From NCBI RefSeq assembly GCF_988242995.1, contig NZ_OZ547043.1: a stretch of 64,000 bases of DNA; one strand, written 5' to 3'. A program made the position numbers and the translations under genes. Below are positions 60,657 through 61,016 of this stretch, piece after piece. Within the stretch, counting starts at the first letter, position 1, and the number at the start of each line of letters is the position of its first letter. The notes beneath the pieces are model-generated. The model had not been told where the DNA came from, made no database searches, and was given only the letters and a program-made list of their open reading frames with translations.

Positions 60657-61016
60657 ATGACCAAACGCCAGGGCAAAAACCGCAGGCGCGTTAACCGTCT
60701 TATTGAACTATGGCCTGAATTATTCAGCCTGGAATCACCGAAGCCGCTTAAGGTAGGGATATTTGAAGACCTGATACAGGATATTGCCGTCAGGGCGCTG
60801 GCTTTTGGGTCAGGGGCATTACGTGCGGCGCTAGCATCTTATGCTCATTCTCCGCGTTATTACCGTGCCTTAATGGCTGGTGGCGTGCGTTACGATCTGA
60901 ATTGCCAGCCATGCGGTGAGGTGACACAACAGGAACAGCAGGACGCGGAAGCACGACTGATGGCACTGAAAGAGAAGCGCAAACGTAAGTCGAACAAGGA
61001 ACAAGCTGGCGTATGA
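60657..61016 (+). CDS. FinO/ProQ-domain RNA-binding protein
   Basis: 119-aa ORF aligning by eye with the ProQ N-terminal FinO domain (PLKVGIFEDLIQDI vs ProQ PLKIGIFQDLVDRV; YDLNCQPCGEV vs VDLDGNPCGEL). Confidence 0.7.
   Translation: MTKRQGKNRRRVNRLIELWPELFSLESPKPLKVGIFEDLIQDIAVRALAFGSGALRAALASYAHSPRYYRALMAGGVRYDLNCQPCGEVTQQEQQDAEARLMALKEKRKRKSNKEQAGV

Follow-up and report, generated by a model that had tools for sequence, protein, structure and literature searches.

A FinO-family gene cut by an amber codon in a small phage satellite-like island at tRNA-Pro

The DNA analysed here (the window) is a stretch of 64,000 nucleotides from contig NZ_OZ547043.1 of NCBI RefSeq assembly GCF_988242995.1, and our subject is a gene of the FinO/ProQ family at 60480–61016, carried by a small island integrated at a tRNA-Pro gene. 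A preliminary description of this DNA had proposed that an open reading frame (ORF) of 119 codons at 60657–61016 encodes a minimal FinO-domain RNA-binding protein, with a partner RNA in the noncoding DNA on either side. Our preferred reading, to which we give a probability of roughly 0.6, is that the gene is an optional cassette of a phage satellite, that it encodes a FinO-like RNA binder and chaperone, that it is cut by an amber codon in this strain, and that it has no partner RNA next to it. The parts of the gene are as follows.

60480–61016, plus strand: full FinO-family gene, 178 codons in intact alleles, amber-interrupted here (one frame, single internal stop)
60480–60650, plus strand: coding part of the N-terminal extension, 56 codons and TAG; basic, rich in Q, T and K, predicted to be disordered
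60648–60650, plus strand: premature amber codon, TGG to TAG, Trp57 to stop, through G to A at 60649
60657–61016, plus strand: 119-aa ORF with an ATG start, comprising the FinO-domain core and a C-terminal basic helix (Pfam, NCBIfam, AlphaFold, Foldseek)

The ATG-started ORF is present as described, and its product carries a genuine FinO/ProQ-type domain, far beyond chance. In a hidden Markov model search, PF04352 (ProQ/FinO) matches residues 10–112 of the 119-aa product with E=5.6e-25 (87.9 bits; model positions 6–107 of 109). The NCBIfam models for FinO (NF010317; 66.9 bits, 1.9e-18) and ProQ (NF003434; 65.3 bits, 7.1e-18) both match at scores below their curated cut-offs, which are 136 and 127 respectively. 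No second Pfam domain, the ProQ C-terminal domain included, was found in the product, and the chain stops 7 residues past the PF04352 match; the earlier statement that the ProQ C-terminal domain is missing therefore holds. The domain assignment is correct, and is already found in public annotation.

Structural comparisons gave the same result. Among sequence matches in the PDB, the best solved structure is the ProQ N-terminal domain (2.6e-13), followed by FinO (3e-10), with NMB1681 and RocC also matched. All 26 Foldseek matches to the PDB below 1e-3 are FinO (1dvo), NMB1681, RocC or Lpp1663, and the best of them is 1dvo (E=1.2e-6, rmsd 2.3 Å over 106 columns, 30% identity). The AlphaFold model, for which the input was an alignment of 24 sequences, has a pLDDT of about 90 in the FinO core. 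In the numbering of the 178-aa protein, residues K91, G93, D97, R115, Y127, R137 and D139 correspond to ProQ K35, G37, D41, R58, Y70, R80 and D82, and all are conserved; the RNA-binding roles of the conserved ProQ and RocC residues are documented (PMC7192607; PMC9674577). The Tyr/Arg pair of the 3′-nucleotide pocket is thus kept as Y127 and R137 (Y68 and R78 in the 119-aa numbering), equivalent to ProQ Y70/R80 and to the pocket residues Y87/R97 of RocC (PMC9674577), and is invariant in the 24 homologues. In the helical N-cap motif (RocC S70/R75; ProQ S53/R58), R115, which corresponds to ProQ R58, is almost invariant; the N-cap serine's position aligns to Gly110/Ser111, where the family consensus is G-P-G, and the modelled helix begins at residue 111.

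The 119-codon ORF is not, however, a gene in its own right. It lies in the same frame as a 56-aa ORF at 60480–60650, and the sole separator between them is the TAG at 60648–60650. In the closest complete genome, that of E. coli LH13-b, codon 57 is TGG, and RefSeq annotates there a single 178-aa “ProQ/FINO family protein” (WP_048230357.1), whose gene equals window positions 60480–61016 but for one base. This base, G to A at 60649, is the sole difference from LH13-b across the island (54300–63370, 9071 nt). Across 61 distinct homologous genes, codon 57 encodes Trp in 51 and is a stop in none, and the products range from 157 to 245 aa in length, with a mode of 180 and a typical length of about 165–190 aa. 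The gene variant occurs in 51 of 5426 complete RefSeq E. coli genomes (about 1%), none of which has the TAG. The exact intact 178-aa protein is encoded by at least 1000 contigs, compared with 34 for the exact 119-aa product and 32 for the 56-aa product; the exact 119-aa product is moreover indexed in 80 sample blocks, gut metagenomes among them. On the basis of these allele frequencies in genomes, contigs and sample blocks, we conclude that the amber allele exists, arose recently and is in the minority, and that it is no sequencing error. What had been described as a minimal protein is the tail of a 178-codon gene cut by an in-frame TAG.

The amber allele also occurs in locus L179 (GCA_022510345.1; related loci are given L numbers here), a remnant island which has yejM directly upstream and from which the segment from int to ssb is gone. 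The stop-codon lineage therefore includes decaying copies.

Comparison of the homologues shows that the part of the gene ahead of the stop is functional coding sequence under purifying selection. Residues 1–59 have an amino-acid conservation of 0.81–0.90 across the 61 distinct genes, indels within the extension fall in whole codons, and dN/dS is 0.40 in the extension, compared to 0.20 in the core and 0.50 in the C-terminal tail. In the AlphaFold model, residues 1–54 are disordered (pLDDT <50), while residues 60–176 are modelled with confidence as a FinO domain, to which a long basic helix is attached at the C-terminal end. The intact 178-aa product is thus modelled in three parts: a disordered basic extension of 59 residues, the FinO domain, and the basic C-terminal helix. 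Because 60480–60650 is coding, the stretch 60445–60656, which had been taken as noncoding, is in fact mostly the 5′ coding part of the same gene, and only a 35-nt leader (60445–60479) is left.

The consequences for expression can be read from the translation signals. An AGAGG ribosome-binding site lies 10 nt 5′ of the ATG at 60480. The ATG at 60657 (Met60) lies 6 nt past the amber stop and has no good Shine-Dalgarno sequence before it; only weak reinitiation is therefore expected, and the 119-aa ORF is translatable only through such reinitiation at Met60. Full-length protein is impossible in the amber strain without suppression, and a 56-aa peptide would be made instead. The allele is most likely null or strongly reduced in this strain, yielding at best a little of the 119-aa core. 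Expression of the following gene, perC, may also fall in the amber allele through lost translational coupling or polarity, because the perC start lies inside the FinO stop codon (ATGA, 61013–61016).

The preliminary description placed the partner RNA in one of two adjacent stretches, 60445–60656 or 61564–62096. We found no support for a dedicated partner RNA encoded next to the FinO gene. The first stretch is accounted for by the 5′ coding part of the gene. As to the second, an Rfam E-value scan of 54000–64000 gave nothing between 57000 and 63300, and 61564–62096 has no Rfam match at E<=1. Our comparison set consisted of 94 other loci that encode homologues, of which 80 were IMG/VR contigs and the rest came from genomes; in about 70 of the 94 the sequence extends as far as the icd-like gene. 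When 60445–60479, 61298–61353 and 61564–62087 were compared with these loci by blastn, the only matches were to the near-identical L001 and L010, so that the flanks, including 61564–62096, are kept only in near-identical islands. We found no conserved RNA beside the gene.

Two further places for an RNA were considered and rejected. An RNA embedded in the FinO ORF is not indicated, as synonymous-site diversity across the 61 genes shows no significant dip (lowest uncorrected p about 0.05). On the minus strand, 57 of the 61 loci have a peak of terminator predictions within the FinO gene; these are weak hairpins (−7 to −11 kcal/mol) at shifting positions with poor T-tails, and we regard this peak of antisense terminators as compositional, because the coding strand is A/C-rich.

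The plus strand of 61564–61934 folds better than shuffled sequence (z = −3.4), with z = −1.1 for the minus strand. This region holds four copies of a GATC-containing repeat, AAATGATCC, two of them direct (61613 and 61635) and two inverted (near 61783 and 61825), as well as a GC hairpin at 61579–61602 and a long palindrome at 61778–61840. Its predicted structure derives largely from the inverted AAATGATCC DNA repeats, which look like protein-binding or promoter-control sites for downstream genes and not like an RNA gene. In 43 of the 61 distinct loci, perC, or an 82-aa ORF that comes next, is immediately followed by a strong intrinsic terminator; its position is constant while the hairpin sequence differs between islands, and in this window it is weak. 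This terminator belongs to the common island backbone. We conjecture that it is a plausible binding site for the FinO domain, since FinO domains recognise terminators (PMC9674577; PMC12001967).

The occurrence of the gene is that of a cassette. Of 79 islands that have a close DUF927 primase, FinO is carried by only 18; loci L097 and L098 are collinear and about 94% identical save for a clean 560-nt FinO indel; and in islands that lack FinO the perC ATG follows the ssb stop by 15 nt. We therefore conclude that the slot between ssb and perC is variable and that the FinO gene occupies it as an optional single-ORF cassette, with no RNA gene co-inherited. In otherwise about 94% identical islands (L096–L099, L105), this slot (60445–61297 in the window) holds nothing, finO, perC, or finO plus perC; perC is directly 3′ of FinO in most related loci. 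The 82-aa ORF mentioned above (MPVTFEEVQQHKKFHGFDDLETT...) is conserved after the slot in many islands (for example L026, L096 and L114), upstream of the strong operon terminator; it is missing from the window, where orf69 (phrog_7206) stands in its place.

The clade is widespread in satellites of Escherichia, Salmonella and Citrobacter. A scan of one genome per species found only 5 loci, and the clade is therefore narrow. Deposited phage genomes gave only 5 distant matches, and plasmids one copy of 56% identity, the others among the matches listed being FinO-type proteins at about 31–37% identity.

The remaining features of the island that bear on the argument are listed here.

54339–54415, plus strand: tRNA-Pro(GGG), integration site, attL side (ARAGORN)
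54622–55866, plus strand: integrase (RefSeq annotation of the identical island)
56725–56801, plus strand: isrK-like (P4 seqA-type) leader RNA with an intrinsic terminator (Rfam RF01394, 47 bits, gathering threshold 50, E=8.7e-8)
56826–56913, plus strand: C4/CI-type antisense immunity RNA (Rfam RF01695, 76 bits, gathering threshold 45, E=7e-14)
57647–59782, plus strand: DUF927 primase-helicase, the island replication protein (phrog_1139 DNA primase, E=1e-166; RefSeq DUF927)
59803–59945, unstranded: origin-like iterons ACTTGTCCCA / GGGACAAGT with 21-nt phasing, flanking an AT-rich spacer (repeat families; layout as in PMC6092414)
60019–60444, plus strand: ssb, encoding a single-stranded DNA-binding protein, the upstream operon neighbour (TIGR00621, 66.6 bits, above cut-off; phrog_44)
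61013–61297, plus strand: PerC-family regulator, its start overlapping the FinO stop in ATGA (RefSeq; phrog_994 and transcriptional-activator PHROGs)

Identical copies of the PerC-family product carry PF06069. The first half of the island runs in the order integrase, AlpA-like helix-turn-helix regulator, an ash-family remnant that overlaps the isrK-like and C4 RNAs, an icd-like gene and DUF4222; the second half consists of the DUF927 primase-helicase, iterons, ssb, finO, perC, small ORFs, a second iteron set and a PmgG-like gene. In total it spans about 8.95 kb, from tRNA-Pro(GGG) to 63348–63362, beside yejO, where the 3′ end of the tRNA is imperfectly repeated. This right-end copy reads CTCTCGTG--GACCAAA, with a 2-nt gap, and no perfect att direct repeat was found for the island.

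The layout closely follows that of the phage-inducible chromosomal islands (PICIs) of Gram-negative bacteria, for which gene order and origin have been defined (PMC6092414): int, an alpA-type regulator and the primase are co-oriented, and are followed by an origin of two iteron sets flanking an AT-rich stretch. The island is also small, has a tRNA att site, and contains no phage structural or lysis genes, the PmgG-like gene being its sole morphogenesis-like gene. It shares with P4 a CI/C4-type immunity RNA with seqA and seqC targets, whereas sid, psu and delta of P4 were not found in the RefSeq annotation or in PHROG or NCBIfam matches of the island ORFs. Judged by gene content, the host element is probably a small PICI-like phage satellite at tRNA-Pro, with putative helper-driven mobilisation. 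It is the same island as ROD34 of enteroaggregative E. coli 042, which has the same gene at the same tRNA-Pro site, and whose cargo was described in the 2010 genome paper as “Ec042-2429, similar to proQ”, plus a PerC-like gene (PMC2808357).

Several other features of the island were observed. The PmgG-like head-morphogenesis gene at 62526–63122 (phrog_1114, E=9e-60) is the only gene of phage-structural type; it is missing from most otherwise similar islands, ROD34 of strain 042 included, the matches of which cover 88% of the query. A second iteron cluster at 62096–62225 resembles that at 59803–59945, with ACTTGTCCCA / GGGACAAGT, 21-nt phasing and AT-rich spacers. In L015, L016, L017 and L094 the homologous iteron halves lie side by side upstream of ssb, and in the window they flank the block ssb-finO-perC-orf69-orf50; this difference points to rearrangement or to duplication of the origin and recalls ori/crr of P4. 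Between the right end of the island and the convergent yejO, 63370–63400 forms a 13-bp A/T-flanked hairpin (AAAAAAACCAACC...GGTTGGTTTTTTT) that resembles a bidirectional terminator, and its homopolymer length is one base off that in LH13-b. Membership of the FinO gene in a defence system was considered and rejected, as there were no PADLOC matches for the FinO, PerC, orf69, orf50, PmgG-like, DUF4222 or icd-like products.

The suggestion that the island runs an RNA-based circuit has turned out to be partly right. An isrK-like/C4 module exists at 56725–56913; it lies 3.6 kb upstream, outside both of the stretches that had been proposed, and FinO and the module do not co-occur. In its loop, UCCUUUUGCG, the C4 RNA shows complementarity to GCAAAAGG at 56766–56773, inside the isrK-like leader, and also to CGCAAAAGGA at 56948–56957, which overlaps the icd-like gene's ribosome-binding site (the ATG is at 56967). 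Together, these elements make up what by its base pairing is predicted to be a complete antisense immunity module of P4/P1 type at 56725–56966, matching the published design of P4 and P1 immunity (PMC3632133; PMC4825925).

A C4-like RNA was found in 7 of the 94 other FinO-bearing loci, using a search model built from two sequences and so of limited sensitivity, with which the full Rfam models concur on the loci tested. These full models detect no C4 or isrK in L002–L004 or L006, nor in L003:3000–5200 at E<=5, and the C4-positive loci are scattered over the FinO subclades, at 44% to 100% identity. The co-occurrence (7 of 94 loci) leads us to reject C4/isrK as an obligatory partner of FinO. FinO is not tied to the C4/isrK circuit, and occurs mostly in islands without those RNAs. 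One of the distant FinO-bearing loci, L093 (44% identity), has three tandem C4-like RNA copies at 1090–1876. Two of the FinO-bearing islands without C4/isrK carry RF02996, the int-alpA RNA motif of Rfam (46.9 bits), between the integrase and the next gene (L003, 963–1030; L006, 930–997); it was not detected in the window.

We propose the following mechanism by analogy with FinO, ProQ and RocC. The intact domain would clamp the base of a terminator-type hairpin together with its 3′ tail, and the disordered N-terminal extension would supply annealing (chaperone) activity. FinO itself needs its N-terminal region for strand exchange and duplexing, and FinO45-186 binds RNA 20-fold tighter and has no duplexing or chaperone activity (PMC3105414). 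The change of TGG to TAG at codon 57 severs the extension from the domain, leaving no full protein in this strain, and the 119-aa core, if reinitiated, would by analogy with FinO45-186 bind RNA without promoting pairing. The RNA targets are most likely features of the common backbone, such as the terminator of the operon itself, or helper or host transcripts. In the literature we found no work on the function of FinO-domain proteins carried by PICI-like satellites, and the main text of a paper on the RNA-binding proteome of enterohaemorrhagic E. coli makes no mention of a FinO-like island protein.

Some points weigh against our reading. The mechanism is carried over to this clade from its homologues, and the chaperone role of the extension is an analogy, because the extension and the N-terminus of FinO are not similar in sequence. 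Three positions on the RNA-binding surface of ProQ are changed: K54 to S111, L71 to Y128, and G85 to C142, where the family consensus is Gly. Finally, Met60 is kept in 55 of the 61 genes and several lineages have independently split just before it; a core-only product may for these reasons be more viable than we have assumed.

Several explanations compete with this one. The cassette could be an accessory trans-acting regulator like PerC, binding terminator hairpins of host or helper and competing with or supplementing chromosomal ProQ. We consider this possible, though at somewhat worse than even odds. In favour of it are the variation of the slot between nothing, FinO, PerC and both in otherwise near-identical islands and the absence of any RNA gene inherited along with FinO; PerC-like genes of PICIs have been described as accessory regulators of host genes (PMC6092414; PMC11773190), and many RNAs of prophages and islands are bound by ProQ (PMC5391140; PMC9977716). 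On the other hand, the characterised FinO-domain proteins of mobile elements, FinO and FopA, each have one dedicated partner encoded in cis (PMC9977716), and the FinO gene is situated in the replication operon, where expression should be shut off by the C4 immunity RNA as long as the island is uninduced, and no internal promoter was detected. That the target should instead be the immunity RNAs of the island, with FinO speeding the pairing of the C4/CI-like RNA with its seqA-like (isrK leader) and seqC-like (icd ribosome-binding) sites, seems to us distinctly improbable. A complete antisense system is present in the same operon, at its end the isrK-like RNA has a canonical terminator and U-tail, the motif bound by FinO domains, and IsrK is among the prophage sRNAs with which ProQ of Salmonella is reported to associate (PMC5391140); however, the rarity of C4-like RNA among the other FinO loci (even given that about 70 of these extend as far as the icd-like gene), its scatter over the subclades, and the loci in which the full Rfam models see neither RNA all speak against a dedicated role. 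To our knowledge, moreover, P4 and P1 run CI/C4 immunity without any FinO protein. A role in replication itself, in which the protein would act at the origin by binding primer RNA or structured single strands, is suggested by the gene order of primase, origin, ssb and finO, and PcnR, a plasmid FinO-domain protein, serves in replication control, as does the other plasmid relative, FopA (PMC9977716). We give it hardly any credence: the FinO gene is missing from three quarters of the islands that share this primase and origin, FopA and PcnR act through antisense RNA on the rep mRNA and not at the origin, and no antisense RNA signal was found near the primase gene.

Other alternatives concern the short product. 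The amber allele might be a working separation-of-function variant, in which reinitiation at 60657 yields a 119-aa core that shields RNAs without pairing them, in effect a secondary “minimal FinO protein”. The start codon does follow the stop by 6 nt, no further change affects the rest of the ORF and many samples retain the allele; NMB1681 and Lpp1663 show that minimal FinO proteins occur in nature, FinO45-186 binds RNA tightly, and independent splits occur at the same junction in other lineages, one of them a frameshift with an ATGA stop-start overlap. We nevertheless think this unlikely, given the lack of a Shine-Dalgarno sequence ahead of 60657 and a mutation in the window too recent for the intact ORF to be informative about selection. 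Furthermore, the split clade with the ATGA overlap, whose product is 114 aa long, has G93E and F95P/T at otherwise conserved core positions and a degraded context, which suggests decay and not a maintained minimal form. Selection for lost or altered function at such splits is conceivable, and it is notable that the lone substitution in 9 kb is a nonsense one. A bolder version would see here the first RNA chaperone of a phage satellite, a portable one-gene cassette that reprograms helper or host RNAs or the island's own C4-type immunity switch, with the splits before Met60 (the window amber and the ATGA-overlap clade) as selected separation-of-function or derepression alleles, like finO::IS3 in F; F itself does bear an insertion-inactivated finO (PMC2808357), but we regard this version as doubtful speculation. 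The model with which the analysis began, a naturally minimal 119-aa protein with its partner RNA in 60445–60656 or 61564–62096, is largely refuted by the in-frame stop and the lengths of the homologues, and we consider it very improbable. It retains a real ORF and domain and the plus-strand fold of 61564–61934 (z = −3.4); against it stand the fact that 60480–60650 is conserved 5′ coding sequence of this gene, the lack of any Rfam match in 61564–62096 and the conservation of that stretch in near-identical islands only, and a fold which stems largely from the inverted AAATGATCC repeats and is weak on the minus strand. We therefore retain the reading of an optional FinO-like cassette, amber-cut in this strain.

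Plasmid FinO-domain proteins are textbook antisense-RNA cofactors. The gene described here falls in an uncharacterised clade of FinO-domain proteins carried by satellites, and its natural presence or absence in near-identical islands, together with its truncation alleles, provides ready-made isogenic comparisons for the role of an RNA chaperone in a satellite. For this window, the outcome is that the earlier description has to be corrected: a nonsense codon cuts the gene of the supposedly “minimal” protein, and half of the DNA proposed to hold the partner RNA is coding DNA of that gene.

In its layout, the protein resembles FinO rather than ProQ. Like FinO of F-like plasmids (1DVO), it is encoded on a mobile element and has a disordered basic N-terminus, a FinO domain and a C-terminal helix; identity over the domain is however about 33%, the N-terminal extension cannot be aligned to that of FinO, and the locus has no tra operon or FinP/traJ, being instead part of the replication operon of a chromosomal satellite (int, alpA, primase, ssb). 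ProQ of E. coli and Salmonella (5NB9) is the best sequence match among solved structures and shares K35, G37, D41, R58, Y70, R80 and D82; the window protein differs in lacking the linker and the C-terminal Tudor-like domain, since it ends at residue 178 and has the N-terminal extension instead, and in being accessory, the variant occurring in about 1% of complete E. coli genomes (51 of 5426). NMB1681 of N. meningitidis and Lpp1663 of L. pneumophila are similar in size to the 119-aa remnant, with a FinO domain and short tails, but they are naturally minimal, whereas the short form here is the nonsense product of a 178-aa gene with a selected extension. FopA (IncI1 pCol1B9) and PcnR (IncI2), likened here by description and not by sequence, are FinO-domain proteins of mobile elements linked to replication control; they work with a cis-encoded Inc antisense RNA on the rep mRNA (PMC9977716), and no comparable RNA was found here. 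The closest counterparts are Ec042-2429 in ROD34 and the RefSeq proteins WP_048230357.1 and WP_000209995.1, which represent this very gene; island and tRNA-Pro site are also the same. In these the protein is intact at 178 aa, while in the window it is amber-cut, and ROD34 of strain 042 differs further from the window island in lacking the PmgG-like gene (62526–63122).

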